Origin: Alphaproteobacteria bacterium 43-37
GTDB lineage: Bacteria > Pseudomonadota > Alphaproteobacteria > 43-37
Direction: 5' to 3'
Assembly: GCA_001897475.1 (NCBI GenBank)
Contig: MKSY01000026.1
Span: forward strand, 25,324 to 89,323
Length of the DNA: 64,000 nt
The position numbers and the translations under genes are program-made. This document shows positions 8,472 through 47,243 of the stretch, in pieces (the first letter of the stretch is position 1; every line of letters starts with the position of its first letter). The notes under the pieces were generated by a model. The model saw only the letters and a list, made by a program, of their open reading frames with translations, did not search any database and was not told the DNA's origin.

Positions 8472-8619
8472 CTACCGCTGAATATCAACAATCAATTTAT
8501 TCCCAACCTAATTTGTTACCTAGGAGAAGAACTTGAAGGTGTCTAATTTCAAAGACCCTAGGGAAGTTATGGTGGGCGATGAGGGGATTGAACCCCCGAC
8601 CCTCTCGGTGTAAACGAGA
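8472..8619. repeat. attL: direct repeat of the attR region, including a 50-bp exact copy of the tRNA-Val 3' end (8570-8619)
   Basis: Positions 8570-8619 are identical to 47194-47243. About 95 bp of imperfect homology extend leftward (ctgaatatcaacaatcaatttattcc...ttgttacctaggagaa). Confidence 0.75.
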
Positions 8620-8734
8620 TTCCAGTATTGTCATGGAATTATCAAAAGCTATAATTTTTGTTTTATTTTTAGTGGCTTACGCAAAATCTAAAATCATCTG
8701 GTGTCACTAAAAATTTGCTATTTTATCCATTTTT

Positions 8735-8756
8735 TGTTACCTATATGTTACCTAGA
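8735..8756 (+). promoter_or_regulatory. Tandem TTGTTACCTA repeats upstream of int (candidate integrase arm-type sites)
   Basis: ttgttacctatatgttacctag recurs exactly at 47127-47148 beside attR, and as a single copy at 8514-8524. Confidence 0.4.
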
Positions 8757-8773
8757 TCAAAAATGATGGATAG

Positions 8774-9967
8774 ATGCCAAAACTAACAAGAAAGATTATT
8801 GACGAATTAAAACCTGATCTTTCAAAAGAAAGATGCCTTTGGGATACTGAGATTAAAGGGTTTGGTATAAGGATACAAAAGAGCGATAAGAAAACGTTTA
8901 TTTATGTCTACAGAAACTCAAGCGGCAAGCTGAGAAAATTCAAGCTTGGTAATTATGGTAGCCTTACTGTTGAGCAGGCAAGAGAGCGCGCTTTAAAAAC
9001 TTCTGCTAAGGTTATCCTTGGTGAAGACCCTGTTAAAGAAAAGGAAGAGATAGTACTCGCTCGAAAAAATGCAGTTTACACTGTTTCTGACCTCATAAAT
9101 GACTACATGTTAAATTATGCTCCAGCAAACATAAAAAAAATTACCATAGGAAAATGGAAAAGCTTTATAAGGCTTTATATCTTGCCCGAATGGGGGGCTA
9201 GACCAGTCAATGAAATTAAAAAATCTGATGCTGAAAAGCTAAAGGCTAGCCTTAAGGATAAAAAGACTACTGCTAACCAGGTATTATGTATACTCTCAAG
9301 TATGTTTAATCATGCCATTGAATGGGGTAAAATCACTGAAAATCCCATTACTAAAGTTAAAAAGTATAAGGAACATAAAAGGCTTCGTTGGGCTGATGGT
9401 GAAGAGTTTGAACGATTATGGTCAACCCTTCAAAGTTACAAGGGCTATGCGCCTGCTGATGTTCTTATCTTTATTCTTTTAACTGGCTCACGTAAAAGTG
9501 AGGTTTTTAAGGCTAGTTGGGATCAATTTGATCTTGAAAAAGGTATTTGGGTTAAGCCCCACATTAATACAAAGCAGCAACGAAACGAGTATATTCCTCT
9601 TTCTCATGAGGCTATAGAGTTTCTTCAGGAATTAAGAGGGTATTCCTCTGACTATTACCTTTTTCCTGGTCGGGTTCCGGGTTCACATATTACAGATGTC
9701 AAAAAGTTCTGGGCTAAGGTTCTTAAAGAAGCCAACATTGACAACCTGCGCATCCATGATCTGCGGCATACGTACGCATCCCACCTGGTCTCCAGTGGTT
9801 TGAGTCTTAGTATTGTGGGTAGGCTTTTAGGACACTCAAACCCAAATACCACCCAGCGCTATGCCCATTTGGCTGATCAGGCTCTGCGTGATGCCACAAA
9901 CCTGTTTGCGGGTAAGCTGAAGAAAATTACGCAGAAAGATTCATCCTCAAAAGAACCTTCATTATAA
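8774..9967 (+). CDS. int: Tyrosine integrase (P4-type, with N-terminal arm-binding DUF4102-like domain)
   Basis: The catalytic block is RIHDLRHTYASHLVSSGLSL...LLGHSNPNTTQRYAHL (R, HxxR, Y). The N-terminus has WDTEIKGFGIRI. The gene is adjacent to attL. Confidence 0.9.
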   Translation: MPKLTRKIIDELKPDLSKERCLWDTEIKGFGIRIQKSDKKTFIYVYRNSSGKLRKFKLGNYGSLTVEQARERALKTSAKVILGEDPVKEKEEIVLARKNAVYTVSDLINDYMLNYAPANIKKITIGKWKSFIRLYILPEWGARPVNEIKKSDAEKLKASLKDKKTTANQVLCILSSMFNHAIEWGKITENPITKVKKYKEHKRLRWADGEEFERLWSTLQSYKGYAPADVLIFILLTGSRKSEVFKASWDQFDLEKGIWVKPHINTKQQRNEYIPLSHEAIEFLQELRGYSSDYYLFPGRVPGSHITDVKKFWAKVLKEANIDNLRIHDLRHTYASHLVSSGLSLSIVGRLLGHSNPNTTQRYAHLADQALRDATNLFAGKLKKITQKDSSSKEPSL

Positions 9968-10032
9968 TCACAACATAAATCTTTTAATCCGTTAAATAAC
10001 CTCTCTCTTCCTATACAAGGAGTTTCCCCCTT

Positions 10033-10380
10033 ATGTGCGATCCAGTTACCGCAATGGTAGCCATGGCCGGCACCAGCATGCTCGGTACAATGTATATGGC
10101 CTCTAAAGACCGTGATATGCCAACGTTCAACCCCCCTTCTGCTAGTCTGCCTGCACCGCCACCAGCGCCTGAGCCTCCCAAGATACAGGATGCCTTCTCT
10201 GGGAATAGCCACCTCAATGACATCAAGCCAGGGCAGTTGTCCCTTGGCATCAAATCCCCACTAGAAACCAAGCTTGACCTTCGAGCCAAACAAAAGTCCG
10301 CTTTACGCAAAAAGCAAAAGGTGGAAGGGCTATTCGCTGGAGGCGGTCTCAACATTCCCATGCCGGACGGTGATGTATGA
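10033..10380 (+). CDS. Small Pro-rich hypothetical protein, translationally coupled to the portal gene (position of T7 gp6.7/7.3)
   Basis: Its stop overlaps the portal start. It has low complexity (PPSASLPAPPPAPEPP). Support is position only. Confidence 0.3.
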   Translation: MCDPVTAMVAMAGTSMLGTMYMASKDRDMPTFNPPSASLPAPPPAPEPPKIQDAFSGNSHLNDIKPGQLSLGIKSPLETKLDLRAKQKSALRKKQKVEGLFAGGGLNIPMPDGDV

Positions 10381-11894
10381 GCATGGTGATTAAACCCGAT
10401 CTCCTCAGCACGGATTCCCTTAAAAGTCGTTATGAGAAACTGGCAATCAAGCGTCATCCTTTCCTGGAGCGATCCCGTGAGTGCGCTGAGCTCACACAGC
10501 CTTACCTTATGATGCGCCCAGGTCAAACTCAATTTGTGACTCCATGGCAAGGAATCGGCTCTCGAGGAGTTAACAATTTAGCTGCCAAGCTATTGTTGGC
10601 TTTGCTTCCCCCCAACAGCCCCTTCTTTCGCCTGGTGGTGCAAGAGGCAGAATTGGTTGATGTTGACCCCAAGCTCAAGCTGCATGTCGATGAAGCCTTG
10701 ACCCAATGCGAACGCCTTTTGATGACTGAGATTGAAACAGGCGCTATGCGCGTGGGAGTCTTTGAAGCGTTAAAACACCTCATTGTTACTGGCAATAGCC
10801 TCATCTACCTTGTTCCCGAAGGGGGCATCCGCGTCTTTCACTTGGATCAGTATGTTATTCGCCGTGATCCTGCCGGCCATGCATTAGAAATCATTGTCCA
10901 TGAGAAAGTTGACCGAACTTTTGTGGATTTACCCTTAGATAGTCTTGGAATTGATAAGCCTTCATCCTCAGATCAAACCACTGTTGACCTCTTCACCAGC
11001 ATCACCTGGCAAGATGATAGATGGCATGTTCTTCAAGAGGTTGGCGGTGTCCTAGTGCCTGAATCAAAGGGAACCTACCCTAAAGACTGCTCCCCTTGGC
11101 TTGCCCTTAGGTTTATCCGGGTGGATGGCGAAGACTATGGAAGAGGTTTGGTAGAAGAATATTTGGGTGATTTGAAGAGTCTGGAGACCCTTACCAAAGC
11201 GATTGTGGAAGGAAGCGCAGCGGCAGCCAAAGTTCTGTTTCTGGTTAAGCCAAACTCCACCACGAAAGAAACAGTTCTAGCTGAAGCTCCTAATGGAGCC
11301 ATACGTTCAGGAAACGCTGAAGATGTAACAGTCCTCCAAGTGCAAAAATATGCGGACTTTCGGGTAGCCAGAGAAACTATGGAGCATATGACACAGCGGC
11401 TATCCTATGCTTTCTTGCTCAACTCTTCTATCCAAAGGCAAGGTGAGCGAGTCACAGCTGAAGAAATCCGACATATGGCAGGAGAGCTGGAAGATGCCTT
11501 GGGTGGCGTTTACTCCATCCTCTCCCAAGAGTTCCAACTGCCACTCATTTTACGACTGATGCACCAGATGGAGCGTAGAGGTTTATTCCCCAAACTGCCC
11601 AAGGGGATGGTCAGGCCCATGATTGTCACTGGCCTAGAGGCTTTAGGCAGAGGGCACGACCTTCTCAAGCTCCAGAGCTTTGTGGGCGATTTAGCCAGCC
11701 TTGGCCAAGCTTTGCCAGAAATCCTGATGCGTATTAACCCAGAAGAGCTGATCAAGCGCTTGTGCATTGCCAGAGGCTTGGATGCCCAAGGACTCATATT
11801 ATCGGAAGAAGAGCTGATGCAAAAGCAAGCGATCCAGCAACAAGCTCAGATGCAAGCTCAAGCGCCAATGCTTCCTGGCTTACCCATTACCTAA
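10377..11894 (+). CDS. Portal (head-to-tail connector) protein, T7 gp8-like
   Basis: At 505 aa it is the first large gene of the structural block that contains the scaffold, capsid and tail tubular genes. It has an acidic Gln-rich C-terminus. No direct motif evidence. Confidence 0.7.
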   Translation: MSMVIKPDLLSTDSLKSRYEKLAIKRHPFLERSRECAELTQPYLMMRPGQTQFVTPWQGIGSRGVNNLAAKLLLALLPPNSPFFRLVVQEAELVDVDPKLKLHVDEALTQCERLLMTEIETGAMRVGVFEALKHLIVTGNSLIYLVPEGGIRVFHLDQYVIRRDPAGHALEIIVHEKVDRTFVDLPLDSLGIDKPSSSDQTTVDLFTSITWQDDRWHVLQEVGGVLVPESKGTYPKDCSPWLALRFIRVDGEDYGRGLVEEYLGDLKSLETLTKAIVEGSAAAAKVLFLVKPNSTTKETVLAEAPNGAIRSGNAEDVTVLQVQKYADFRVARETMEHMTQRLSYAFLLNSSIQRQGERVTAEEIRHMAGELEDALGGVYSILSQEFQLPLILRLMHQMERRGLFPKLPKGMVRPMIVTGLEALGRGHDLLKLQSFVGDLASLGQALPEILMRINPEELIKRLCIARGLDAQGLILSEEELMQKQAIQQQAQMQAQAPMLPGLPIT

Positions 11895-11951: not shown

Positions 11952-12608
11952 ATGACCTCTGAAAACAGTACTATTGAGCCAACTTCTGAGAGTGGGCCTC
12001 AGCCAGAAACTCAGCTTGAACCCTCATCACCTTCGACCCCAACAACCCCAAATTCTCCTAACCAACCCGATAATCTAACCATCGATCCAGCGCCTCAATC
12101 ATCAGAACCACCCATCAGCCAACAGTTCCTTTCCGAACTCACCCAAGAATACCAGCAACAAGGTACTCTTTCCGAAGAACGCTATCAGCAGTTGGAAAAG
12201 CTTGGAATCAGCAAACCCTTTGTGGACACTTACATCAAGGGCGTTCAATCTCAGGCCAATGAGGCGGTGCAAAAAGCATATGCTGCTGTGGGCGGTAAAG
12301 AAACCTTTGAGCAGATGCAGCAATGGGCCACTCATAACTTAAGCAAAGAGCAGATTTTGGCCTTCAATGAGATTGTGACGACCTCACCTAATATGGATGC
12401 GGCCATCTTAGCCATCAAGGGGCTTTATGCCGATTACAGGCAAGCTCAAGAACCATCTTTGCTTCAAGGTAAAGGCAGTGGCCATGACACCAGTGTCTTT
12501 GAATCGCTCGCTCAAGTGACGGAAGCCATCAAAGACCCACGCTATGAGAAAGACCCAGCTTACCGGCGAGCGGTGGAAAGCAAACTCGCTCGATCTAGAG
12601 TGCTCTAA
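11952..12608 (+). CDS. Scaffolding protein (gp9-like)
   Basis: It lies between the portal and capsid genes. It has a Pro/Ser-rich N-terminus followed by a helical, charged region. Confidence 0.5.
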   Translation: MTSENSTIEPTSESGPQPETQLEPSSPSTPTTPNSPNQPDNLTIDPAPQSSEPPISQQFLSELTQEYQQQGTLSEERYQQLEKLGISKPFVDTYIKGVQSQANEAVQKAYAAVGGKETFEQMQQWATHNLSKEQILAFNEIVTTSPNMDAAILAIKGLYADYRQAQEPSLLQGKGSGHDTSVFESLAQVTEAIKDPRYEKDPAYRRAVESKLARSRVL

Positions 12609-12675: not shown

Positions 12676-13629
12676 ATGACGTTTACTCCCTCACGCCCAG
12701 GTATCAACAGTCTCAATCCGCAGACTGGTGATCGCGAACTGTTTTTAAAAGTCTACAGCGGTGAAGTGTTAGCCGCCTTTGAAGAAAGCACGGTGGCCAT
12801 GAGCCGCCATATGGTGCGCACCATCCAAAATGGTAAAAGCGCTGCCTTCCCTGCCCTCTGGAAAGCGGATGCGTATTACCATAAACCAGGTGAAGTCATT
12901 GCGCCTCAAGCCTTTAACCATGGTGAACGAGTGATCACTATTGATGATCTATTGGTCTCAGCATCCTTCTTACCCAGCATTGATGAAGCCATGTCCAGTT
13001 ATGATGTCAGAGCCGCTTATTCCAAAGAAGCAGGCTTTGCTTTAGCCAGACGCTTTGACCAGAACGTCCTCAAGACCGGCATTCTGGGTGCACGCTCTGG
13101 CCCAGCTGTGAGTGGCGGCCCCTATGGCAGTATTCTTGAACGAGACAAGATTGACTCTGACAGCATGGTTCTAGCCGAAAGCATCTTTGAAGCCGCCCAG
13201 TTGCTCGATGAGAAAGATGTTCCGTCACAAGATCGCTTCATCTTCCTAAGCCCCAAGCATTATTACATGCTTGCCAGAAACACCACGGTGCTTAATAAAG
13301 ACTGGGGCGGCAGTGGCGCTTACAGTGATGGTAAAGTCCTCAAGATTGCCGGCATCACCATTGTGGAGACCAACAACCTACCCAACACCAACATTAATGA
13401 TGGCTTGGATAAATACCGTGGCGACTTCTCTAGCACGGTAGCTCTTGTGATGCATAAAACAGGTGTTGGCACCGTCAAGCTCATGGAGATGGCGACCGAG
13501 TCTGAATATGACATCACCCGTCAAGGATTCTGGACGGTGGCCAAGATGGCTGTGGGCTCTGGGGTTCTTCGCCCTGAAGCGTGTGTTGAATTGAGGAAGA
13601 AAGTTGGCAGCCCAGTTCAAGCAAAATAA
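12676..13629 (+). CDS. Major capsid protein, T7 gp10-like
   Basis: LFLKVYSGEVLAAFEESTVAMSRHMVRTIQNGKSAAFP and the C-terminal VGTVKLMEMA...GVLRPEA align with T7 gp10A (LFLKVFGGEVLTAF...SRHMVRS...GKSAQFP; VGTVKLRDLA...GGLRPEA). Confidence 0.9.
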   Translation: MTFTPSRPGINSLNPQTGDRELFLKVYSGEVLAAFEESTVAMSRHMVRTIQNGKSAAFPALWKADAYYHKPGEVIAPQAFNHGERVITIDDLLVSASFLPSIDEAMSSYDVRAAYSKEAGFALARRFDQNVLKTGILGARSGPAVSGGPYGSILERDKIDSDSMVLAESIFEAAQLLDEKDVPSQDRFIFLSPKHYYMLARNTTVLNKDWGGSGAYSDGKVLKIAGITIVETNNLPNTNINDGLDKYRGDFSSTVALVMHKTGVGTVKLMEMATESEYDITRQGFWTVAKMAVGSGVLRPEACVELRKKVGSPVQAK

Positions 13630-14164: not shown

Positions 14165-14243
14165 TACGCTTTAAATCTTAATCTTATACCCACGTATTCA
14201 CGTGTATGCAGTTGAATAGGGTATGTGTAAAGAGGGAACCCCT

Positions 14244-14837
14244 ATGCTTTCACCCACCTCAACGTTAGATGCCATCAACATGATGTTGTCTGGCATCGGT
14301 CTAAGACCGGTTACGGCTGATCAGTTGGAGTCTAAAACCCGATCTGAAGTCGCCATAGCCGTCAACCTTCTAGAAAATGTCACCCGTGAGGTACAATCTT
14401 CTGGCTGGGGGTTTAATACTGAAAACGCTTATCCCTTTGTACCTAACGAGGAGGGAGAAATTTTACTCCCTCCGGGCCTTCTTAAAATTGAAGGCACGCC
14501 TCACCACCCAGGGCTGACTATGAGGAGAAAGGCAGGCACTTTTGGCAAACAGTTTTACCTCTATGATCCAAACCGTCACAGCTTCACTTTCAAACAAACC
14601 GTTCACGCGGACGTGGTCTGGCAGTTTGAGTTTGAGGATTTGCCAGAGCCTTTTCGCCGCTATATCTTGATTCGCTCGGGACGGATGTTCCAAGACCGTG
14701 TGGGTGGTTCCCATTCTCAGCATATGTTCCAAGAGCGAGATGAGATGACTGCGCTATCAGCTCTACGCAATGCCGATAACCAAACCACGCAACCCAATAT
14801 ACTTAATCCCAAAACCTTTCCTCTCATCCGCAGATAA
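14244..14837 (+). CDS. Tail tubular protein A (T7 gp11-like)
   Basis: MLSGIGLRPVTADQL...REVQSSGWGFNTEN corresponds to T7 gp11 ILASIGEPPVSTLEGD...RQIQSRGWTFNIEE. The start is taken at the ATG that has an AGAGGGA RBS. Confidence 0.75.
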   Translation: MLSPTSTLDAINMMLSGIGLRPVTADQLESKTRSEVAIAVNLLENVTREVQSSGWGFNTENAYPFVPNEEGEILLPPGLLKIEGTPHHPGLTMRRKAGTFGKQFYLYDPNRHSFTFKQTVHADVVWQFEFEDLPEPFRRYILIRSGRMFQDRVGGSHSQHMFQERDEMTALSALRNADNQTTQPNILNPKTFPLIRR

Positions 14838-14874
14838 TAACCAGTTCTATCTCTTATCTTCACAGGATTTCCGC

Positions 14875-17142
14875 ATGACAGCCTTACACACCCAGCTGAT
14901 TCCGCATCTTTGTGGCGGCATCTCAAAGCAGCCTGCTTATCTTCGTGGCATTACCATGAGCGAAGATGAGCTGAATACCTGGCCTTCATTGTCTGAAGGA
15001 TTGCGCAAAAAGCCGCCTACATCGTTTGTAGCCAAGTTGAATATCCCTGCATCCGAATCCATCCTCTTTTGCCAAAACCTTGAGATCAGCGAGAAGCTCG
15101 CCTTTACCCTTGTCATCACACCTGGGCAGCTCCATATGTTTGATCCATTTGGTAAGAGCCTTGCGGTTGAGGGTGGTTTATCACTATATCTGATTGGGCA
15201 AAATTTTGCCGCCATTACCATCGCGGATGAAACTTTTATTCTGAATAAAAATAAAACGCCTCAAATGCTGGATGCTTTGGATACCAAGCGTCCCTTTGAA
15301 GGCATGGTCTTCATCCGCCAAGCCATTCGAGATACGACCTATTCAGTATCCATCAATGTGGGTAGCAGCGAGCACTTCTTCTCTCATTCCACCAAAGTGC
15401 TTTCCCGAGATCAAGGAATTGATACGGATATGATCTGCAATAGCCTTTACTCTCAAATGCGCTCTTCATTGCCATCTTCTTTTAAGCTTCAACAACAAGG
15501 CTCTAAAATCTTGATTCAAAATGAGCAAACTGACTTTACCTTGAAAGCCATGGATGGGTTTGGGGATCAGGGGATTCAAGGGATCAAGGACACTATCGGC
15601 GATTTCGCAGAATTACCCCACACAGCCTTTGTAGGCTTTACCGTTGAGGTCAGCAGTGATCCACGGCATAAATTAAACAAAACCCTTCCCAAAGATAGTT
15701 ACTATGTGTGGTATCAAGGTAATGGAGTTTGGACGGAAACCGTCAAAGGCGGCCTGAAATATGCCATTGATCCAACCACCATGCCGCATAAATTGAGCTT
15801 TAATGAAGAAGGAAGGTTTAAGTTCGAGGCAGCTACCTGGAAAGACCGGGATGCTGGCGATGATCAAACAGCTCCTGAGCCTTCGTTCATTGGTACACCA
15901 ATTTCGGACATGGTCTTTTACAAAAGCCGGCTTGGGCTCTTGTGCGGGAGCAATATTGTGTTTTCAGAAACTGACGATATTACGAACTTCTGGCCAACCA
16001 CAACAGCGACTGTGATTGATTCTGACCCCATTGACTTAACAGTCTCAGCCAACCAGCCAGTCTTGTTAAACTATGCTGTGCCCACCTTAAATGGCAATCT
16101 ATTGCTGTTTGCTAATCAAGATCAATTTTTACTGACCGTCAAAGACATTTTAAGCCCCCATACGGTAAGCATCAATATTTACAGCCACTATTCAGGCATC
16201 ACCACTAAACCGATGGAAGCTGAGCAGAGTATTGTGTTTGCCACCAAGCATGGCAATTCAACGGAGGTAAGAGAAATCTCACCCACACTAGCAGATTCTT
16301 ATGATAACAGCACGATTGAAACCTTGACAGATCATGTGCCATCTTTTCTGCCAGACAAATTGACGGAAAGTTTCTCGCTCACAAAGGAAAAACTCTTAGG
16401 CTTTTACAGGCCCAAAAACAAAACCATTTACATATACAAATACCACTGGCGCAAGGATATCAAGGTTCAATCCGCTTGGACAAAATGGGAGTTTCCCCAT
16501 GAGATTGAAGCAATAACAGCAACAGCGGATGGGCTCACGCTGATTGCTAAAACAAGCAGAGGTGAACGACTGATGCTCAAGATGGCCCTAAGAGAAGAGG
16601 CACCAATTTACCTGGACTCACTCACAGAGCTTACCAATGGCACCTTTGATCTTCACACGATATACACTTCATGGAGTCTTCCATTTTTACCTGAGAACGG
16701 CCTTAGAGCTTTTGCAGAGGACAGGACGGAGCTGGAGATAACCATTGATCCAGTCAGCAACCAATGTAGGGTTGGTGGAAATTATTCTCAAAGTTCAGTC
16801 ACGGTAGGATACGGCTATGACTTTGCCTATACCTTCTCACCGTTCTTAGTGAAGCGGGAAGCTCAGTCAGGACAAGTGAGCGCAGAATTGGAAGCGATGC
16901 CATTGGTGAAGGACTTGATTATCACCACGCAAAATACGCCTGAATTTGAAGTAAGCATTGAATCTGAGGGCACATTGCCAACCCAAAGCAGCATCATTCC
17001 GACCACGACCAAACCACAGGCCCAGCGTATCTTGATCTTGGATCGAGCGGAGGGGCTTACCGTTAGGCTCATTTGCAAAGCCCCGTACAGCTGTTTGTTC
17101 CAAAACGCCACCTGGAGATATACTCATGGTCAAATCAACTAA
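14875..17142 (+). CDS. Tail tubular protein B (T7 gp12-like)
   Basis: At about 755 aa, with size and position matching T7 gp12. The internal Met start (MTALHTQLIPHL) has an AGGA RBS and avoids a long overlap with gp11. Confidence 0.7.
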   Translation: MTALHTQLIPHLCGGISKQPAYLRGITMSEDELNTWPSLSEGLRKKPPTSFVAKLNIPASESILFCQNLEISEKLAFTLVITPGQLHMFDPFGKSLAVEGGLSLYLIGQNFAAITIADETFILNKNKTPQMLDALDTKRPFEGMVFIRQAIRDTTYSVSINVGSSEHFFSHSTKVLSRDQGIDTDMICNSLYSQMRSSLPSSFKLQQQGSKILIQNEQTDFTLKAMDGFGDQGIQGIKDTIGDFAELPHTAFVGFTVEVSSDPRHKLNKTLPKDSYYVWYQGNGVWTETVKGGLKYAIDPTTMPHKLSFNEEGRFKFEAATWKDRDAGDDQTAPEPSFIGTPISDMVFYKSRLGLLCGSNIVFSETDDITNFWPTTTATVIDSDPIDLTVSANQPVLLNYAVPTLNGNLLLFANQDQFLLTVKDILSPHTVSINIYSHYSGITTKPMEAEQSIVFATKHGNSTEVREISPTLADSYDNSTIETLTDHVPSFLPDKLTESFSLTKEKLLGFYRPKNKTIYIYKYHWRKDIKVQSAWTKWEFPHEIEAITATADGLTLIAKTSRGERLMLKMALREEAPIYLDSLTELTNGTFDLHTIYTSWSLPFLPENGLRAFAEDRTELEITIDPVSNQCRVGGNYSQSSVTVGYGYDFAYTFSPFLVKREAQSGQVSAELEAMPLVKDLIITTQNTPEFEVSIESEGTLPTQSSIIPTTTKPQAQRILILDRAEGLTVRLICKAPYSCLFQNATWRYTHGQIN

Positions 17143-17641: not shown

Positions 17642-17642
17642 A

Positions 17643-31377: not shown

Positions 31378-31404
31378 GGGTTCTTAAACCTAATTCTAAA
31401 CATT

Positions 31405-38690: not shown

Positions 38691-38770
38691 AAAGAGCCTT
38701 AAGAAACTTAAAGCACATATAAGCTTCTTCTTTCATCATCTTCATCAACATATCTTACTTTCCAAAGTCT

Positions 38771-38940
38771 GCTCAAGCCCGAGCCGCCCAGGCGGGAGGC
38801 AGGGCGAGGGCTGCAAGCAGCCACAGACGACACAAAGAAAGGAAAGACACAAAAGAAAGTGTCATCTCATCTCTTCCAAGAGCAATCGTCGTGTCGCACT
38901 GCGAGGCAGTTGCTGCCAAGGCAGGAGATAGAACAAAGAA
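38771..38940. other. GC-rich structured block inside the 650-bp noncoding region between the RNAP and SSB genes (candidate ori, promoter cluster or ncRNA)
   Basis: gctcaagcccgagccgcccaggcgggaggcagggcgagggctgcaagcagcc... has short palindromes (ggctgcaagcagcc). It is flanked by very AT-rich DNA (tatataatatatattaataaactatag). Confidence 0.3.
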
Positions 38941-39093
38941 TCATTCATCATACCTAATGTTTTCTTAAGGAAAGGAAGCATCATGACAAACTCATCATAA
39001 AAAGGCTCTGTCAAGAGCCGCCCCTTAATTCATCATAATGAACCATAATTCATTTAATGCCTTCATTTCTTTTACTCAAAGGACACACATCCC

Positions 39094-39681: not shown

Positions 39682-40060
39682 ACATCAACAGTACCGTTCA
39701 GCCTTTGAGAAAGGGATTGCCAAAAGCTTATCCGCCAAAAACATTCCTTTCACCTATGAGACCAAATCCCTTGTCTACCACAGCACTCAAACTTACACAC
39801 CCGACTTTGTGTTTCCATCAGGCTTGATGTTGGAAGCCAAAGGGTTTTTTAAACCACAGGATCGTCGCAAGCATTTGCTTGTTAAGCAACAACATCCTGA
39901 TGTGGATATCCGGTTTGTGTTTCAAAATGCCAATGTGCCTTTGTCTAAGGGTTCAAAAACCACTTATGCCAAATGGTGTGAAAGGCATGGGTTTTTGTAT
40001 GCTGAAAAGGATGTTCCAGACAGCTGGATCACTCAGAGCATCGTTGAGGAGGTGCAATGA
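39635..40060 (+). CDS. Endonuclease I (Holliday-junction resolvase), T7 gp3-like
   Basis: YTPDFVFPSGLMLEAKGFFKPQDRRKHLLVKQQHPDVDIRFVF matches T7 gp3 YTPDFLLPNGIFVETKGLWESDDRKKHLLIREQHPELDIRIVF. The start is uncertain (39596, 39635 or 39656) and overlaps the end of the SSB gene. Confidence 0.8.
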   Translation: MSIQAKRQMRKKSPSKHQQYRSAFEKGIAKSLSAKNIPFTYETKSLVYHSTQTYTPDFVFPSGLMLEAKGFFKPQDRRKHLLVKQQHPDVDIRFVFQNANVPLSKGSKTTYAKWCERHGFLYAEKDVPDSWITQSIVEEVQ

Positions 40061-41640
40061 CTTCAAATTCAAACTTTGTTGGTCATGAGCCTTGTCCAAA
40101 GTGTGGTAGCAAGGATAATCTTGGTCGATATGATGACGGTCATGGCTATTGTTATGGCTGCCAATACAGTCAGCAGCCTGATTCAGTTGAGGAAGTTGAA
40201 GAAGTTGAGGGTGTAGAAAGAGGCAATAGCTTCTCTTTTATTCAAGGCACCATCAAAGCTTTGCCCAAGCGTGGTTTGACTCAGGCAACCTGCAAGCTCT
40301 GGCGCTATGAGGTGGGTCAATACAAAGGTAGGGTTTGCCATATTGCCAATTATTTTGATGAGGCTGGGAGAAAGGTTGGCCAAAAACTTCGATTTGAAGA
40401 TAAAACTTTTAAGGTCATTGGCAAGCTGAATCTTTATGGTAAACATCTTTGGTCGGCTGGAAAAATGGTGGTGGTGACTGAAGGTGAGATTGACGCCCTG
40501 TCTATGTCTCAAGCTTTTGATAACAAATGGCCTGTGGTGTCGATCCCAAATGGGGTGCAAAGTGCTTATAAAGCCTTACAAGAAACCCAAGACTGGTTCA
40601 ATGGCTTTGACCGAGTTGTGTTACTGTTTGATCAAGATGAAGCCGGCATTAAGGCCGCCAAGTCCTGTGCTCAGCTGTTTAAGGTGGGTCACGTCTTTAT
40701 TGGCAAACTCCCATTAAAGGATGCCAATGAGATGATCGTGGCAGGCCGAAGCTCAGAACTCATCAATGCCATATGGCGAGCGTCTGAATACCGGCCCGAT
40801 GGCATTGTGGATGGCAAGGACACCTGGAAATATCTTCTCGAGTCCCAGGGCAAGCCAGCAGCACTTTATCCATTTGAAGGATTAAACCAAAAGACCGGAG
40901 GCATTCGCCTTGGGGAAATTGTGACCATTTGTGCTGGCACAGGAATTGGAAAGTCCCAAGCTTGCCGTGAGATTGCTTTGTCTTTGGTAAATCAAAACTT
41001 TAAGGTTGGCTACATTGCCTTGGAAGAAAACTTGGGCAAAACAGTTGCTTCATTCATTCACCTTAAGCTTAATCAACCACCTCATGCTTCACTTCAAACA
41101 GATGACACCACAAAAACTGTATGGGAAGAAGTTATCCCAAAGATGGCGTTTTATGATCACTTTGGCTCAATGGACAGCACAACCTTACTCAACCGGATTC
41201 GGTTTATGGCTGTGAGCCTGAACTGCAAACACATTATCCTCGACCACTTGTCCATTGTGATCTCTGGCTTGGCTGGGGGCGATGAGCGGCGGATGATTGA
41301 TCAGACCATGACCAATCTACGTTCTCTAGTGGAAGAGTTACAAATCAGTCTCATCCTTGTTTCTCACTTGCGTCGCATTGATGGCAAGCCTCATGAAGAA
41401 GGTGGCGCCACATCTTTGTCTCACCTTCGTGGCAGTGGCGGTGTGGCTCAGCTGTCTGACATGGTCATTGGCCTAGAGCGGGATCAACAGTCTGAATCCT
41501 CTAATCTCATGACTCTGAGAGTCCTTAAGAATCGCTTCAAAGGTGAGACGGGGTTTGCCGCTACACTGGAATATAACCCCACCACCGGAAGGCTGAGCGA
41601 GGTAAGCGCTAAGAGCGGTGAAGCTACGACAGCCTTTTAA
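40057..41640 (+). CDS. DNA primase/helicase, T7 gp4-like
   Basis: It has a zinc ribbon (CPKCGSKDNLGRYDDGHGYCYGCQ), a TOPRIM region and a helicase Walker A (CAGTGIGKS). Confidence 0.9.
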   Translation: MTSNSNFVGHEPCPKCGSKDNLGRYDDGHGYCYGCQYSQQPDSVEEVEEVEGVERGNSFSFIQGTIKALPKRGLTQATCKLWRYEVGQYKGRVCHIANYFDEAGRKVGQKLRFEDKTFKVIGKLNLYGKHLWSAGKMVVVTEGEIDALSMSQAFDNKWPVVSIPNGVQSAYKALQETQDWFNGFDRVVLLFDQDEAGIKAAKSCAQLFKVGHVFIGKLPLKDANEMIVAGRSSELINAIWRASEYRPDGIVDGKDTWKYLLESQGKPAALYPFEGLNQKTGGIRLGEIVTICAGTGIGKSQACREIALSLVNQNFKVGYIALEENLGKTVASFIHLKLNQPPHASLQTDDTTKTVWEEVIPKMAFYDHFGSMDSTTLLNRIRFMAVSLNCKHIILDHLSIVISGLAGGDERRMIDQTMTNLRSLVEELQISLILVSHLRRIDGKPHEEGGATSLSHLRGSGGVAQLSDMVIGLERDQQSESSNLMTLRVLKNRFKGETGFAATLEYNPTTGRLSEVSAKSGEATTAF

Positions 41641-41776: not shown

Positions 41777-42298
41777 ATGCAAAATTTAAATACAACTTCT
41801 GATTTTGAGCTCAATAATCGTTCTGGTCGTGGCATTCAAGATAATACTCGTCCATTAAAGCATTTTAAGTCGATCCGTAACAAAAAGTTTGGTTTTTCTC
41901 TTGATGCGATGACGGATGATGAAGGAACGGTTTGGTTTGTTTTTGATGTCGTTTGCTACTATCTGGGATTATCGACTTTAAAGAACCCTAAAGAGACTCT
42001 TAATGAAGCTCAAACACGTGTCGTTACAACGGGTATATATGGGGGCTGGAAGCCAATCACTCTTGTCAGTGAGCCTGGAGTTTATCATCTGGCTTTAAGA
42101 AGCCATAAACCAAGCGCCGAACGATTCTATGAATGGGTCTTTGAGGACGCACTACCTTCTATTCGCAAAGCAAGCATTGATGCTTTACTGGCTCAAATTA
42201 ATGCATTCAATGAAGAGATCAGAGAAACTAAGGAATTGCTGCGAGCTCGTCATGAGGAGCTGATCTTCTGCAAATTCGGTGCAGATTACATTTGTTAA
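41777..42298 (+). CDS. Bro-N domain protein
   Basis: WFVFDVVCYYLGL...GVYHLALRSHKPSAERFYEWVFEDALPSIRK is a Bro-N (antirepressor N-terminal) signature. Confidence 0.65.
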   Translation: MQNLNTTSDFELNNRSGRGIQDNTRPLKHFKSIRNKKFGFSLDAMTDDEGTVWFVFDVVCYYLGLSTLKNPKETLNEAQTRVVTTGIYGGWKPITLVSEPGVYHLALRSHKPSAERFYEWVFEDALPSIRKASIDALLAQINAFNEEIRETKELLRARHEELIFCKFGADYIC

Positions 42299-42328
42299 AA
42301 ATGACTCACTTGTAGCTGAAAGGTTACC

Positions 42329-42619
42329 ATGCCTGATCATACACCAAATGTAAGTTTCCTTGAGAATGTGCAAAGCACCCTTGAGGATCGCAAAAACCAG
42401 TATGGTACAGCTGAAGAGCTGTTTACCCATATTGCCAAACGGTGGAGCCTGACGCTTAGTCAGGCCATCACGCCTGCTCAGGTTGCCATCTGCATGATGG
42501 ACTTGAAGATGGCCAGGCTTGCCCATGATCCTAAACACCATGACAGCCTTATGGACATTGTGGGATATGCCAACTGCCTGGCTGACCTTAAAGCATCAGG
42601 GAAAGCTTTTACTCCCTAA
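42329..42619 (+). CDS. Hypothetical protein
   Basis: The 96-aa ORF lies between the two Bro-N genes. No motif recognised. Confidence 0.35.
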   Translation: MPDHTPNVSFLENVQSTLEDRKNQYGTAEELFTHIAKRWSLTLSQAITPAQVAICMMDLKMARLAHDPKHHDSLMDIVGYANCLADLKASGKAFTP

Positions 42620-42661
42620 CTTAGGCCCATACCGCATACCTCTGGGCAATATATTTTTCTA

Positions 42662-43525
42662 ATGAAGCACTCAAATAAGGATTTAAAACTTATGACTATT
42701 CTAAATTTTCCTGGCACCAGCGCCACTAACACCCATGCCAATTCTTCCTCTAATAGCACCGCCTCAGCTTTACAAACCTTTCTTTTTGAAGATCAAAATG
42801 TCCGCATTGCCCTTGATGATAAAGGTGAGCCTTGGTTTGTGGCTGCAGATGTTTGCAGGATTCTAAATCTCCAAGATCATAAGTCGGCATTAAGGCCTCT
42901 AGAAGAAGATGAAAGGGGGGTAAAAACTTTCCTATCCCATGGAGGGCCTCAAAAATACTCCATTATTAATGAATCAGGCCTTTATTGGCTTATCTTTAGA
43001 AGCACCAAGCCTGATGCCAAACGCTTCCGTATTTGGGTTACCAATGAAGTCTTGCCATCCATTCGCAAGACTGGCAGCTATAGTGTGCATAATAAAATTC
43101 CAGACTTTACCAAAATCCCAGAAACATACGAAGAGCTGATGTTCCACCATCAATATGTTGTTGGAGCTTGTATAAAGCTGCAAAAGGAAAACGAGGTTAT
43201 TAAGCCCAAAGCGTTATTTTATGACAATTATAAAGATGTGAAGGGAAATCACCCCCTGCGTGCCTTAGGTAAACTCTTTCATCTTCCGCCCAATGGGCTT
43301 ATTAAACAGCTGATTGAGGATGGATTCTTATATCGGTGTGGTAAGTCGCTCATGGCCAAGCAAACCTTTGTCCAGAAGAAGTGGTTTGAGACCAAGCTGG
43401 TCATTGATTATCATGGAAGACCTAAAACACAAACGGTTGTTACGCCCAAAGGTGTTTTAGGATTAGCTGAGCGCTACGGTTTCATGAATGACTCTGATTC
43501 CAACGATGACTACTTAATCAATTGA
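42662..43525 (+). CDS. Bro-N domain plus KilA-C/ANT-like C-terminal domain protein
   Basis: It has a second Bro-N block (WFVAADVCRILNL...GLYWLIFRSTKPDAKRFRIWVTNEVLPSIRK). The C-terminal 150 aa resemble antirepressor C-domains. Confidence 0.65.
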   Translation: MKHSNKDLKLMTILNFPGTSATNTHANSSSNSTASALQTFLFEDQNVRIALDDKGEPWFVAADVCRILNLQDHKSALRPLEEDERGVKTFLSHGGPQKYSIINESGLYWLIFRSTKPDAKRFRIWVTNEVLPSIRKTGSYSVHNKIPDFTKIPETYEELMFHHQYVVGACIKLQKENEVIKPKALFYDNYKDVKGNHPLRALGKLFHLPPNGLIKQLIEDGFLYRCGKSLMAKQTFVQKKWFETKLVIDYHGRPKTQTVVTPKGVLGLAERYGFMNDSDSNDDYLIN

Positions 43526-43623: not shown

Positions 43624-45408
43624 ATGACGAAATGGATCATGGATTGTGAATGCGATGGGCTTTTGCCTGAAGCAACCCAGCTGTTTTGCGTTGTCTTACG
43701 AAGTCTTGACGTTCCAGATCACATTGCCACCTTTACCCAAGAGACCGGCTTTGATGGCTTGAAGGAAACCCTTCAGGCAAGCGAACTTTTGGTTGGCCAT
43801 AATATTATTGGGTTTGACTTGCCCTTATTGGAAAAGCTTATTGGTCTACCTAAATCAGTTTGTGAGATCAGAGACACACTCATTATTGCTCGTCTGATGT
43901 TTCCTGACACAGCAGCCTTGGATAACCTGAATAAACTTCCTGGTAAACTCTGGGGAAGACATTCTCTTGAGGCTTGGGGCCACCGCCTTAAGGTTCATAA
44001 AGGTAATCATGTGGACTTTTCGATATTTTCAGAAGGAATGCTGGACTATTGCATTCAAGACACCTTTGTAACCTATAGGCTGTGGCAATTTTTAAAGAAG
44101 CAGAAATGGGACGAACGGTCAATCACCCTTGAGCATGAAGTGGCCAAAATCATACAGGCTCAGGAAAGTCGAGGATTTTGCTTTGATGTCGACAAAGCCG
44201 TGTCTTTATACACGAAGCTGCTGGATAAAAAGCATACCCTTACAACAGCGCTCCAAGAACTCTTCCCACCATGGTGGGGTAACGAGCATATTTTTGTGCC
44301 CAAACGAGACAATAAACGCTTAGGCTATGTGGCTGGTGTTCCGGTGACAAAGGGAGAATGGATCACTTTTAACCCATCGTCTCGAGATCATATCGCCGAT
44401 CGCTTGCAAGCTGTTTATGGATGGAAGCCCAAGGAACTCACACCCACTAACAAACCCATTGTGGATTGCCAGAGTCTTGGCTTATTAAACTACCCACCCA
44501 TTCCATTGCTCTTAGAATATCTAACTATCGAAAAGCGCCTAGGCCAATTGGCTGAAGGCAATCAGGCTTGGTTAATGCTTGAGCGTAAGGGCAGGCTTCA
44601 TGGCAAGGTCAATACCAATGGTGCAGTGACAGGGCGGATGACGCATTCGAACCCAAACATGGCTCAGGTTCCGGCCAATGATGTGCCTTATGGTAAAGAA
44701 TGCCGTGATCTATTCATCCCAAGCCCAGGTTTTGTCTTAGTCGGTTGTGATGCGGCTGCCTTGGAATTGCGGTGTCTGGCAGGCTACATGGCTCCTTATG
44801 ACAATGGTGCTTATGTTCAAACTGTTATTGGTGGCGAAAAATCCACAGGCACGGACATTCATAGTGTCAACCAACAAGCCATTGGTGCTGAATCAAGGGA
44901 CATCGCAAAGACTTGGTTTTACGCCTACATCTATGGTGCTGGGCATGCCAAGCTCGGTGAAATCTTAAGTGGTAATGCGGCTTTAGGTAAGATATCCAAG
45001 GAACGATTTGAGAAAAACCTTCCCGCCTTGGGTAAGCTGGTGAAAGCCATTGAGCAAACACTTGTCACAAGAAAATACCTAAAAGGATTGGATGGCCGAA
45101 AGCTTTATGTGCGTTCCAAACATGCGGCCCTGAACACACTTTTGCAAAGTGCTGGAGCGGTGCTGATGAAGCAAGCTTTGGTGTTGCTTAAACAGAGCCT
45201 TGATGCTGAAGGGCTTGTCCTAAATAAGGACTACGCCTTTGTGGCCAATGTCCATGATGAATGGCAGATCGAGGCTTTGCGTCATTTGGCGGATATTATC
45301 GGGCAAAAGTCCGTGGAAGCCATCAAAGCTGCTGGCAACCACTTCAACTTTGCTTGTCCCTTAGATGCCTCCTACAACATTGGCTCCTCTTGGGTTGAGA
45401 CTCATTAA
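43624..45408 (+). CDS. DNA polymerase, family A, T7 gp5-like (compact, 594 aa)
   Basis: It has an N-terminal 3'-5' exonuclease motif (IMDCECDGL). WGRHSLEAWGHRLKVHKGNH matches T7 gp5 FGSHALEAWGYRLGEMKGEY. Pol motifs DYAFVANVHDEWQ are present. Confidence 0.9.
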   Translation: MTKWIMDCECDGLLPEATQLFCVVLRSLDVPDHIATFTQETGFDGLKETLQASELLVGHNIIGFDLPLLEKLIGLPKSVCEIRDTLIIARLMFPDTAALDNLNKLPGKLWGRHSLEAWGHRLKVHKGNHVDFSIFSEGMLDYCIQDTFVTYRLWQFLKKQKWDERSITLEHEVAKIIQAQESRGFCFDVDKAVSLYTKLLDKKHTLTTALQELFPPWWGNEHIFVPKRDNKRLGYVAGVPVTKGEWITFNPSSRDHIADRLQAVYGWKPKELTPTNKPIVDCQSLGLLNYPPIPLLLEYLTIEKRLGQLAEGNQAWLMLERKGRLHGKVNTNGAVTGRMTHSNPNMAQVPANDVPYGKECRDLFIPSPGFVLVGCDAAALELRCLAGYMAPYDNGAYVQTVIGGEKSTGTDIHSVNQQAIGAESRDIAKTWFYAYIYGAGHAKLGEILSGNAALGKISKERFEKNLPALGKLVKAIEQTLVTRKYLKGLDGRKLYVRSKHAALNTLLQSAGAVLMKQALVLLKQSLDAEGLVLNKDYAFVANVHDEWQIEALRHLADIIGQKSVEAIKAAGNHFNFACPLDASYNIGSSWVETH

Positions 45409-45425
45409 AACTGGAAAATCACAAA

Positions 45426-46181
45426 ATGACTAAATTACTTATTGACGGCGATATGCTGATCTATCGTCATGCCCATGGGGCAACCGAACATGTGGACTGG
45501 GGTGACGGCCTTTGGGTGTCTTTTGGCAACCAGCATATTGCCATAGAAGGCATTCATAGAACGATTTCTGAGTGGCAAGAGCAGTTTAAAGCAAAAGATG
45601 TTCTCCTGGCCTTATCGCATAAAGACAATTTCCGCAAAAAGCTGTGCCCGAAATATAAGGCGCAAAGGAGGTTAAAAGAACCAGCCGTTCTGGTCAAAGT
45701 TTTAAGACAAGAAGTTGCCAAAGATTATCCTACCCTTGAGGTTCCAACCTTAGAGGCTGACGATGTCATTGGTATTGAAGCGACGAAGGACAATGAGAAT
45801 GAATGTTCTAAAGCCATCATTATCTCTTCGGATAAAGATTTTAAGCAAATCCCTGGGACTCACTTTAACCCGCTCACGCCCCTGTTAGGCCTTGAAACAG
45901 TTACCAAGTCACAAGCTGAAGAAGCCTTTCTGACGCAAACCCTTTCTGGGGACATTGTGGATGGCTATACTGGCTGCCCAGGCATTGGCAAAACCAAAGC
46001 CAAAAGTATCTTGGATGGCTACTTATCCTTGGCTGATGCGTGGGAGAGGATACTCAAAACTTACGCCAAAGCAAATCTCAAGCCAGAAGATGTGCTCCAC
46101 CAGGCCAGGCTCGCCAAGATTTTGCATGCTCATGAATATTGCCCAAAGCAGGGCGTGCGCCTTTGGCAGCCCCCCCTCTAA
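45426..46181 (+). CDS. 5'-3' exonuclease, T7 gp6-like (FEN family)
   Basis: LLIDGDMLIYRHAH, LEADDVIGIEAT, ISSDKDFKQIP and GDIVDGYTGCPGIG align with T7 gp6 MDGDWLVFQAM, LEGDDVMGVIAS, ISCDKDFKTIP and GDITDGYSGIAGWG. Confidence 0.85.
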   Translation: MTKLLIDGDMLIYRHAHGATEHVDWGDGLWVSFGNQHIAIEGIHRTISEWQEQFKAKDVLLALSHKDNFRKKLCPKYKAQRRLKEPAVLVKVLRQEVAKDYPTLEVPTLEADDVIGIEATKDNENECSKAIIISSDKDFKQIPGTHFNPLTPLLGLETVTKSQAEEAFLTQTLSGDIVDGYTGCPGIGKTKAKSILDGYLSLADAWERILKTYAKANLKPEDVLHQARLAKILHAHEYCPKQGVRLWQPPL

Positions 46182-46241
46182 AAACACATCGCCTACCTAT
46201 AAAAACTCAACCAATAATCTAAAACAGGAACTGATATAATA

Positions 46242-46640
46242 ATGACTCAATTACTCACGCCTAAAGCTGTGGCGAATCAATACAGCATCAGCCTCAGCAC
46301 TCTTTACAAACAGCGAACCTTAAACACAGGCATTCCTTATACCAAGGATGCGGATGGAAACACATACTATAACCGCAAGGATGTAGAAGCCTGGCTTGCC
46401 AACCATTGGAACCCACGAGTGAACAAAAAGGCCCGTACATACATCAATCCTGATGTGGTTCATTTTGTGACGCCTAAATACATTGCCAAAACCTATAATC
46501 TGTGTGAGCAAACCTTGGCCAGGCTTAGGCAGCTGGGCAAAGGAATGAGGTTTGTGAGCCTCAGAGGGCAAGATTATTACATCAAAGAGCAATGGGAGAC
46601 GTTTTACCGGGGCCGAAACGTCAATGTGAACTGGAATTGA
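46242..46640 (+). CDS. Tandem-HTH excisionase/AlpA-like DNA-binding protein
   Basis: It has two repeats of the motif LLTPKAVANQYSISLSTLYKQ...GIPYTKD / FVTPKYIAKTYNLCEQTLARLRQLGKGMRFV, which is the excisionase-type (MerR-like) HTH. Confidence 0.5.
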   Translation: MTQLLTPKAVANQYSISLSTLYKQRTLNTGIPYTKDADGNTYYNRKDVEAWLANHWNPRVNKKARTYINPDVVHFVTPKYIAKTYNLCEQTLARLRQLGKGMRFVSLRGQDYYIKEQWETFYRGRNVNVNWN

Positions 46641-46653
46641 GGAGGCATAAACA

Positions 46654-46932
46654 ATGACTCAACACTATGCCTACACAAAAGACAACAAAGCCACCCGCCT
46701 TATGGGCGAACAAGAGGTAGCCAAGATGCTGAATGTCAGCCCAGGCACACTAAGAAATCAACGTTCCAAAAAGATCGGCTTACCGTATGTGAAGATTGGA
46801 AAGAAGGTTCAATATAGGTATTCAGATATCGAGGATTTTATTGAGAAAAACATTCGCCTGATCACAAAAGATCACTCAATCGGTGCAGCAATTAAAATAG
46901 GACTGGAAAATGACAAAAATATTGCTAACTGA
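46654..46932 (+). CDS. Excisionase-family HTH protein
   Basis: QEVAKMLNVSPGTLRNQRSKKIGLPYVKIGKKVQYRYSDIEDFI is paralogous to the neighbouring genes. Confidence 0.5.
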   Translation: MTQHYAYTKDNKATRLMGEQEVAKMLNVSPGTLRNQRSKKIGLPYVKIGKKVQYRYSDIEDFIEKNIRLITKDHSIGAAIKIGLENDKNIAN

Positions 46933-47119
46933 AAAGCAGGTTTCAGAATTATACAATGTAAGCGTTGGAACTCTGCGCTCTCAAAGAGTAACCGGCAAAG
47001 GAATGCCCTTTGTTAAGTTTGGAGGTAAAATCCTTTATAGGACTGAAGATATTGAAAAATATATTCAGGGTAGACTTTTTAACTCTACCACTGAATATCG
47101 ACAATCAATTTATTCCTAA
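46910..47119 (+). CDS. Excisionase-family HTH protein (candidate recombination directionality factor)
   Basis: KQVSELYNVSVGTLRSQRVTGKGMPFVKFGGKILYRTEDIEKYI. Its 3' end lies inside the att-flanking repeat, and a relic copy of this 3' end is at 8478-8505. Confidence 0.5.
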   Translation: MTKILLTEKQVSELYNVSVGTLRSQRVTGKGMPFVKFGGKILYRTEDIEKYIQGRLFNSTTEYRQSIYS

Positions 47120-47243
47120 TCTAACTTGTTACCTATATGTTACCTAGGAGAAAAATCCAGAAGTTGCTAACTTCAAAAACCCTAGGGAAACTATGGTGGG
47201 CGATGAGGGGATTGAACCCCCGACCCTCTCGGTGTAAACGAGA
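47086..47243. repeat. attR: direct repeat partner of 8472-8619, overlapping the 3' 50 nt of tRNA-Val
   Basis: Positions 47194-47243 are identical to 8570-8619. The upstream imperfect homology contains the TTGTTACCTA tandem at 47127-47148. Confidence 0.75.

Follow-up and report, generated by a model that had tools for sequence, protein, structure and literature searches.

Only recently were temperate T7-like phages recognised. Lysogeny was reported for the T7-like phage Pasto and for pelagiphages, and T7-like prophages have been termed widespread (PMC10134795, PMC9145550); in a marine survey, an integrase is encoded by 625 of 1143 Autographiviridae populations (PMC12361551). In published temperate T7-likes, the integrase gene (int) lies together with a gene for a MarR-like or helix-turn-helix (HTH) regulator just upstream of the RNA polymerase (RNAP) gene, and the phage attachment site, attP, is located between int and the RNAP gene (PMC12361551). 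In the record of Pasto, for example, the early region holds the genes for an HTH regulator and the integrase, and a tRNA-Leu separates int from the RNAP gene. Lysogeny is modelled as being held through silencing of the RNAP gene (PMC10134795), and the published model has a MarR-like regulator and an integrase beside that gene. Here, we analyse a 64,000-nucleotide stretch of contig MKSY01000026.1 (positions 25,324 to 89,323; hereafter, the window) from Alphaproteobacteria bacterium 43-37, which carries a 38.6-kb T7-like prophage at 8568-47243, integrated in the 3' end of a tRNA-Val(TAC) gene.

This element is very probably an intact-looking temperate T7-like (Autographiviridae-type) phage genome of an uncultured alphaproteobacterium. 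It is a new, divergent temperate T7-like lineage with a variant lysogeny architecture. A first-pass annotation of the same DNA had regarded integrated T7-likes as rare, a view that does not survive the published cases of Pasto, pelagiphages and LUZ100 or the reports and survey cited above.

The longest exact match between the two prophage ends is a 52-bp direct repeat, 50 bases of which are the last 50 nt, i.e. the 3' part, of tRNA-Val (Table 1). A 27-nt piece of this core has two exact copies in the window, where none is expected by chance. The tRNA-Val(TAC) gene is the single tRNA gene of the window, as called by both ARAGORN and Rfam, and the Rfam scan returned nothing except tRNA above threshold; sub-threshold matches in 38441-39093 look like chance. 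Target-derived repeats thus lie at both ends of the element and the attR junction restores tRNA-Val, as in a site-specifically integrated prophage. Coding sequence makes up 92% of the 38,624 bp that the repeats enclose, and the 38 listed open reading frames (ORFs) are free of obvious truncations. The element is also set apart from the flanking DNA by composition, with a GC skew of -0.02 versus +0.09 and +0.13.

The source is metagenome-assembled, and contigs of a second T7-like prophage in the same metagenome-assembled genome (the sister prophage, see below) do break at repeats, both of which leave some room for a phage contig falsely joined to host DNA via a collapsed tRNA-like repeat. However, the attL junction is also present on a 1.1-kb JGI contig (L005), and a 125-kb ENA scaffold (L002) carries the attR junction together with the adjacent genes hupB and lon; these other assemblies may draw on related samples. 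Additionally, the two junctions have different flanks, with attR giving a complete tRNA. Because both junctions recur in other assemblies and the RNAP gene sits on a contig of 201,628 bp, such an artefact is very unlikely, the least probable of the alternatives considered here.

The gene content is that of a T7-like phage. The RNAP matches T7 RNAP (PDB 1aro) at E = 5e-89, with the equivalents of T7 residues D537, K631, Y639, H811 and D812 aligned and in place; a phage-encoded single-subunit RNAP is a mark of T7-like phages (Autographiviridae). The replication genes gp2.5, gp3, gp4, gp5 and gp6 follow in T7 order on one strand, and the virion module comprises portal, scaffold, gp10, gp11, gp12, gp14 to gp16, fibre and gp18/gp19 genes, gp15 being assigned by position only. 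None of 50,697 phage records matched the prophage in a near-identity DNA search. By portal, the nearest isolated phages are LUZ100 (57% identity), RHEph01, RHEph21, Ralstonia T7-likes, roseophages and pelagiphages (52-57%), while the RNAP is only about 30-31% identical to theirs and at most about 31% identical to that of any isolated phage.

These results bear out most of what the first-pass annotation had claimed, namely a near-complete set of T7 hallmark genes in tRNA-Val, a P4-type integrase with three Xis-like HTH genes, an exact tRNA-derived att core of about 50 bp, and attP between gene 6 (exonuclease) and gene 8 (portal) on a map permuted relative to T7. Its gene list is confirmed by profile searches, gp15 again by position only; in particular, the RNAP, gp10 and gp4 homologies hold (PF00940, E = 9e-88; PF21703, E = 5e-61; primase-helicase families matched). 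Its core coordinates were right within 2 bp of the 52-bp repeat, its integrase carries an Arm-DNA-bind_3 domain and its HTH genes give three PF12728 matches. The permuted map agrees with gene order and the att repeat, and the recovery of both junctions elsewhere speaks against the assembly artefact for which it had allowed. On the other hand, the claim of a 'Bartonella-like' host fails. The source is labelled only 'Alphaproteobacteria bacterium' (GCA_017308305.1, contigs identical to the window), no Bartonella or other Hyphomicrobiales protein occurs in the top 120 Lon hits, and the nearest named Lon proteins (about 70% identity) are from Stellaceae, Kiloniellales, Pelagibius and Aliidongia, a placement that reflects a single gene (Lon) rather than a phylogeny. 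ENA contigs of the sister prophage are named Alphaproteobacteria_43_37_sp001897475. The element extends T7-like prophages to an uncultured, unclassified alphaproteobacterial lineage.

Integration module and related prophages

The integrase has an N-terminal Arm-DNA-bind_3 (DUF4102) domain followed by central and catalytic domains, and the element is inserted at a tRNA 3' end, all of which identify a P4-type integrase. All five copies of TGTTACCTA in the window lie at att arms, versus 0.28 expected, with two on each arm of the prophage. Among the three HTH_17 genes next to the exonuclease gene, the third (46910-47119) matches the TIGR01764 'excise' model below its curated cut-off (22.4 versus 28.8 bits) and likely encodes the excisionase. 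attP lies between this gene and int, on the stretch from the exonuclease gene to the portal gene. Integration through attP therefore splits the prophage where DNA-metabolism genes meet structural genes, with the junction from the terminase large subunit (TerL) gene to the RNAP gene internal. No close homologue of the integrase was found among the T7-like phage records in the collection. Ralstonia phage DU_RP_II, whose integrase is 33% identical, was discarded as a T7-like relative, as it is not an RNAP-encoding T7-like.

The sister prophage (contigs L006/L007/L008, L021 and L023) has an RNAP 81% identical to that of the window and resides at tRNA-Thr(CGT) with a 47-bp core repeat. Its gene order is that of the window: int, 115-aa ORF, portal and on to TerL, cargo, short recombinase and LysR, then the divergent RNAP gene and on to exonuclease and three HTH_17 genes. 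The two prophages are 77-84% identical in DNA except in two stretches. One is the cargo slot (31325-33583). The other runs from 46793 across att to 9701 and takes in the third HTH_17 gene, both att arms and approximately the first 310 codons of int. In line with this, the two integrases are only 50% identical and the third HTH_17 proteins, whose gene lies inside the swapped stretch, only 49%. The arm repeat of the sister is a different one, TGCTACCG, of which each arm has two copies placed as in the window, among them those lying about 20 nt upstream of the start of int. Because they have been exchanged together and the arm repeats co-vary with the integrase, the integrase, arm sites, core and att-proximal HTH_17 gene behave as a single exchangeable cassette. 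Sibling prophages with int, att and xis swapped as a unit offer a natural comparison for att-site specificity.

All 12 genes compared between window and sister are open, with ratios of nonsynonymous to synonymous substitution rates (dN/dS) of 0.04-0.29 in the 11 that gave a usable estimate; the third HTH_17 gene falls outside this range because its dS could not be computed. For these eleven genes, the ratios point to strong purifying selection.

Immediately outside attL, on the host side, lies a fossil P' arm, approximately 85-90% identical to 47085-47191, which includes the last 33 nt of the third HTH_17 gene as well as the P' arm and has suffered an 11-bp deletion by which one TGTTACCTA repeat was lost. 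It looks like an attR remnant of an earlier, related occupant of tRNA-Val.

Other relatives keep parts of this architecture. A more distant one, on contig L016, has the order int, approximately 100-aa ORF, portal, with a portal 68% and an integrase 50% identical to those of the window, and the integrase adjoining a portal gene on contig L020 is likewise 50% identical. The half that runs from recombinase, LysR and RNAP to exonuclease and HTH_17 recurs in another lineage, whose RNAP is 88% identical. An apparent third portal variant (P0337) proved to be the window's own portal with another start codon call. An RNAP query against contigs of species-representative genomes returned nothing related. 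Diverged lineages at different tRNAs, with coherent cassette swaps, imply recent mobility.

Two further observations concern these searches. Contig L020 of an ENA assembly links, at 6783-8402, the sister attL-int-portal segment to the TerL-cargo-short recombinase end of another related prophage; by eye, the join passes through an IS1-family transposase-like fragment, two other assemblies break near there, and it could be a chimera, a tandem array or an insertion sequence-mediated deletion. Separately, a 948-aa single-subunit RNAP (P0004, contig L018), 47% identical to that of the window, lies beside a DUF927 protein on a 7.7-kb contig with a gene context that is not T7-like.

RNA polymerase control and the short recombinase

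Instead of int and a MarR-like gene, the RNAP gene is adjoined by a divergent gene for a LysR-type regulator and, beyond it, by a gene for a 198-aa tyrosine recombinase, and this module is kept in three lineages. The LysR gene has a dN/dS of 0.15 against its sister counterpart, and no homologue of it was found in any T7-like phage record of the collection. It is separated from the RNAP gene by a conserved 160-bp region that contains two copies of TCAACATA and a 22-nt imperfect dyad (35889-35955) overlapping the RNAP start codon. On this arrangement, the LysR-type protein is most likely the best candidate for control of the RNAP.

The search for phage promoters yielded one candidate. The 13-nt motif CGTATWGGAGAAA occurs once in the window, at 38518-38530, and five times in tandem in the sister (L006 12550-12685), at a spacing of about 25 nt; it is confined to the region after the RNAP gene. 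These copies could be iterons, operators or tandem promoters at the position of a T7-like primary origin. As promoter motifs, AATCCNNTAAA barely exceeds chance and TCAACATA shows weak clustering in control regions. A GC-rich segment of 67 nt at 38768-38834, between the RNAP gene and the gene for the single-stranded DNA-binding protein (SSB), is 91% identical to the sister, above the neighbouring coding DNA, and has no Rfam match.

The short recombinase consists of a catalytic domain only. By eye, its catalytic R, K, HxxR, H and Y are all present, and comparison with the sister copy gives a dN/dS of 0.04. Among phages, its closest homologues are recombinases of about 190 aa from large alphaproteobacterial siphophages (35-42% identity); against PDB, no sequence match was found at E <= 1e-3. 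Upstream lies a non-coding region with blocks conserved in three lineages, in which no small ORF is common to all three. One inverted pair is common to them, a 13-nt dyad with 49 nt between its halves upstream of the recombinase gene. A FimB/FimE-type invertase was considered as a reading of the enzyme; no inverted-repeat pair that brackets a plausible switch is common to the three lineages.

The presence of this second tyrosine recombinase near the RNAP gene, where canonical temperate T7-likes have int, and the location of the L020 short recombinase about 1 kb from the attL-int junction would suit a composite of a separate integrative island, the source of the P4-type integrase and attL, and an adjoining insertion of the T7-like genes that has an integration system of its own, such as the short recombinase. 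This is highly improbable, as the 52-bp repeats bracket exactly the T7-like gene set and the int-115-aa ORF-portal order is kept in the sister, with int, an ORF of about 100 aa and portal likewise adjacent in the relative whose portal is 68% identical. Moreover, the exchange between siblings took in the integrase, both arms and the third HTH_17 gene at once. The short recombinase itself lacks a core-binding or arm-binding domain and has its nearest phage relatives in large siphophages that are lytic, the phiCbK-like group among them, and the L020 join traverses the IS1-like fragment at which other assemblies break.

We propose the following course for the temperate cycle. The N-terminal domain of the integrase would bind the arm repeats, and the enzyme would recombine the 52-bp core of attP with the tRNA, the phage copy restoring the gene. 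Excision would be carried out by the integrase together with the att-proximal HTH_17 protein. Lysogeny would be kept by the single RNAP gene staying silent, which would be enough because middle and late T7-like transcription depends on the phage RNAP. The divergent LysR-type regulator most likely silences this gene, taking the place of the MarR-like regulator proposed for Pasto/LUZ100-type phages. A LysR-gated single-subunit RNAP would interest builders of orthogonal expression switches.

The short recombinase, for its part, most likely works on phage DNA instead of serving chromosomal integration. The virion genome ends (terminal repeats) are expected in the interval from TerL (31377) to the RNAP gene (35954), and because the recombinase gene stands beside a conserved ORF-less block where these ends would fall, the enzyme may cyclise incoming DNA or resolve multimers; this role is the weakest part of the proposed mechanism. 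An enzyme that cyclised a terminally repeated genome or resolved its multimers would be analogous to Cre-lox in phage P1. T7-type lysogeny would then have been rebuilt from three parts, namely a ligand-sensing LysR master switch that gates the RNAP and could tie induction to a small molecule, a 198-aa recombinase at a conserved block beside the genome ends, and an exchangeable P4-type int-attP-xis cassette that retargets between tRNAs. We put this forward tentatively and regard it, as a whole, as rather doubtful.

A number of results count against an intact temperate phage controlled in this manner. The four-junction pattern (attL, attR, attB and attP) for excised or empty forms matched only attL in JGI metagenomes and gave 0 matches in IMG/VR, with no attB or attP seen. 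No recurrent T7-type promoter consensus was found with exact k-mers or with 16-mers allowing up to 3 mismatches in intergenic DNA, no spanin was identified among the prophage ORFs, and the gp15-like ORF shows neither a family match nor similarity to the Pasto protein in the same position. Around the short recombinase, neither a defined target site nor a conserved invertible segment emerged, and the roles proposed for this enzyme and for the LysR-type regulator are drawn from gene position and conservation.

The absence of attP and attB junctions from the collections scanned, the promoter search, the missing spanin and the gp15 result, together with the fossil arm, which shows that relatives decay at the tRNA-Val site, would fit a cryptic or defective prophage that looks intact but no longer excises or forms particles, i.e. 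a resident relic or a domesticated element. We consider this improbable given the untruncated ORFs, the high coding density, the strong purifying selection suggested by the eleven usable dN/dS estimates, the intact RNAP catalytic residues, and the several diverged lineages at different tRNAs with coherent cassette swaps. An intact-looking temperate phage thus remains the preferred reading.

Structural, lysis and cargo genes

The element also carries genes on the opposite strand or unrelated to T7. These look like morons and comprise the 197-aa predicted membrane protein, a 136-aa Ala-rich and apparently secreted protein, HigBA and the 647-aa cargo protein; PADLOC found no defence-system match among them. 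The slot between gp13 and gp14 is occupied by ParE/ParD in the sister prophage and by a DUF3800 gene in L016. The cargo slot between TerL and the short recombinase holds, in the sister, a type I secretion ABC transporter, an HlyD-like protein and an AAA-ATPase_like protein. By eye, the N-terminus of the window's 647-aa cargo protein resembles a signal peptide, and the protein also has a predicted membrane segment and extended tracts rich in Gly, Ala and Thr. The lysis genes, for a holin-like protein and a GH24 lysozyme, are placed between gp15 and gp16. Compared pairwise, the gp16-like protein and its positional counterpart in Pasto show no similarity.

Beyond the left end, the DNA next to the fossil arm is low in GC and contains a SocA/Panacea antitoxin-like ORF (7443-7931) followed by a 93-aa ORF without family match (8007-8288), a possible toxin-antitoxin pair. 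Further out in the left host flank, 3056-5792 holds a patatin-like phospholipase and two neighbouring ORFs (246 and 241 aa) that match no family and, by eye, look secreted.

Table 1. Features of the tRNA-Val prophage, in window coordinates.
Feature	Position	Strand	Evidence or remark
Fossil P' arm, host side of attL	8472-8567	.	Degenerate copy of the right end of the prophage itself
attL core, displaced 3' part of tRNA-Val	8568-8619	.	Exact 52-bp repeat of 47192-47243
P-arm repeats, TGTTACCTA x2, ~20 nt upstream of int ATG	8735-8754	+	Candidate arm-type Int binding sites
P4-type tyrosine integrase	8774-9967	+	PF13356 Arm-DNA-bind_3, PF22022, PF00589; phrog_1
115-aa ORF, conserved upstream of portal gene	10033-10380	+	Same-size ORF at same place in sister prophage, 100-aa ORF in L016; no family match
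Portal (gp8)	10377-11894	+	PF12236, E = 6e-88
Scaffold (gp9)	11952-12608	+	PF05396
Major capsid protein (gp10)	12676-13629	+	PF21703 Gp10A-like, E = 5e-61
Tail tubular protein A (gp11)	14223-14837	+	PF17212
Tail tubular protein B / nozzle (gp12)	14770-17142	+	PF25675, E = 2e-149
gp13-like internal virion protein	17126-17641	+	phrog_308; weak PF11090
Moron-like gene, 197-aa predicted membrane protein at gp13/gp14 hot spot	17643-18236	-	No family match
gp14 internal virion protein	18372-18989	+	PF24072
gp15-like protein	18986-20761	+	Position only
Holin-like protein	21206-21655	+	phrog_6637, weak GTA_holin_3TM
GH24 lysozyme	21658-22098	+	PF00959, E = 4e-40
gp16-like internal virion protein	22148-25930	+	phrog_6651, E = 7e-42
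HigB/HigA toxin-antitoxin moron-like genes, between gp16 and fibres	26041-26657	+	PF05015, PF01381
First fibre-like protein	26693-27400	+	Position and N-terminal motif only
Second fibre-like protein	27480-29198	+	PF03906 T7 tail fibre N-terminal domain, phrog_2710
Terminase small subunit (gp18)	29477-29692	+	PF11123
Terminase large subunit (gp19, TerL)	29707-31377	+	PF22530, E = 2e-42
Variable cargo, 647-aa Gly/Ala-rich protein after TerL	31405-33348	-	No family match
Short 198-aa tyrosine recombinase, catalytic domain only	33622-34218	-	PF00589 covering positions 1-169 of 172
Non-coding region, blocks conserved in three lineages	34219-34752	.	Candidate cis-acting region: genome ends, recombinase site or early promoters
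LysR-type regulator, divergent from RNAP gene	34753-35793	-	PF00126, PF03466; start codon uncertain, callers give 325-341 aa
LysR-RNAP divergent control region, 160 bp	35794-35953	.	Near-identical to sister by eye, better conserved than flanking genes
Single-subunit RNA polymerase (gp1)	35954-38440	+	PF00940, E = 9e-88; PF14700
653-bp non-coding region after RNAP gene, candidate origin or promoter region	38441-39093	.	CGTATTGGAGAAA at 38518-38530; no Rfam match above threshold
gp2.5-like SSB	39094-39681	+	phrog_112
Endonuclease I	about 39635-40060	+	PF05367, PF21268, PF13155, PF03796, listed jointly with primase-helicase
Primase-helicase	40057-41640	+	PF05367, PF21268, PF13155, PF03796, listed jointly with endonuclease I
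Bro-N protein, DUF6378 protein, Bro-N/KilAC antirepressor-like protein	41777-43525	+	PF02498, PF19905, PF03374
DNA polymerase (gp5, family A)	43624-45408	+	PF00476
5'-3' exonuclease (gp6)	45426-46181	+	PF02739, PF01367
Three HTH_17 (Xis-like) genes	46242-47119	+	PF12728 x3
P'-arm repeats, TGTTACCTA x2	47127-47146	+	Repeat count and arm comparison
attR core, forms 3' part of intact tRNA	47192-47243	.	Exact 52-bp repeat
tRNA-Val(TAC), reconstituted by phage-borne core	47194-47268	-	ARAGORN, Rfam 66.3 bits

Comparison with described systems

The element shares with T7 (Teseptimavirus) the set and order of genes 1, 2.5, 3, 4, 5, 6, 8, 9, 10, 11, 12, 13, 14, (15), 16, 17, 18 and 19. Distinct from T7, it is integrated and has int and xis genes, its lysis genes, for a GH24 lysozyme and a holin-like protein, stand between gp15 and gp16 in place of the gene 3.5 amidase, it bears opposite-strand morons, and it has no recognisable T7-type promoter consensus.

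The integration module resembles P4-type tRNA-targeting integrases and their AlpA/Xis-type HTH_17 partners in domain architecture, in tRNA 3' insertion with restoration, in direct arm repeats and in the adjacent small HTH_17 gene. Such modules usually reside on genomic islands, satellites, or lambdoid or P2-like prophages. Here, the module resides on a T7-like genome instead, and the T7-like phage records hold no close homologue.

The short recombinase resembles those of Lacusarx, phiCbK-like and DSS3P8-like siphophages, which likewise have no domain but the catalytic one, measure about 190-200 aa and share 35-42% identity along the full length. The window gene differs in its setting, between TerL/cargo and the LysR-RNAP pair on a 38-kb podovirus-type genome.

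The closest described systems are Pasto, RHEph01, LUZ100 and pelagiphage HTVC019P, with which the element has in common its own single-subunit RNAP, T7 gene order, a tRNA-targeting tyrosine integrase and plausible silencing of the RNAP. A circularly permuted prophage map is expected for any integrated T7-like; the unusual part is the position of the split. In Pasto, LUZ100 and the pelagiphages, int and attP lie in the canonical place beside the RNAP gene, as does int in two metagenomic relatives (L011 and L012), upstream of RNAP, whereas the window has both in the interval from the exonuclease gene to the portal gene. In a Burkholderia T7-like prophage, that interval has no integrase. The window integrase is only 27% identical to that of Pasto, over the catalytic half, and the RNAP neighbours are a LysR-type regulator and a 198-aa recombinase rather than the int and MarR-like pair of Pasto/LUZ100-type phages. 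Taken together, temperate T7-likes themselves being already known, the novelty of this lineage is the different placement of its integration and control genes, which indicates that lysogeny systems of different position and build can be carried on the same virion and replication chassis.

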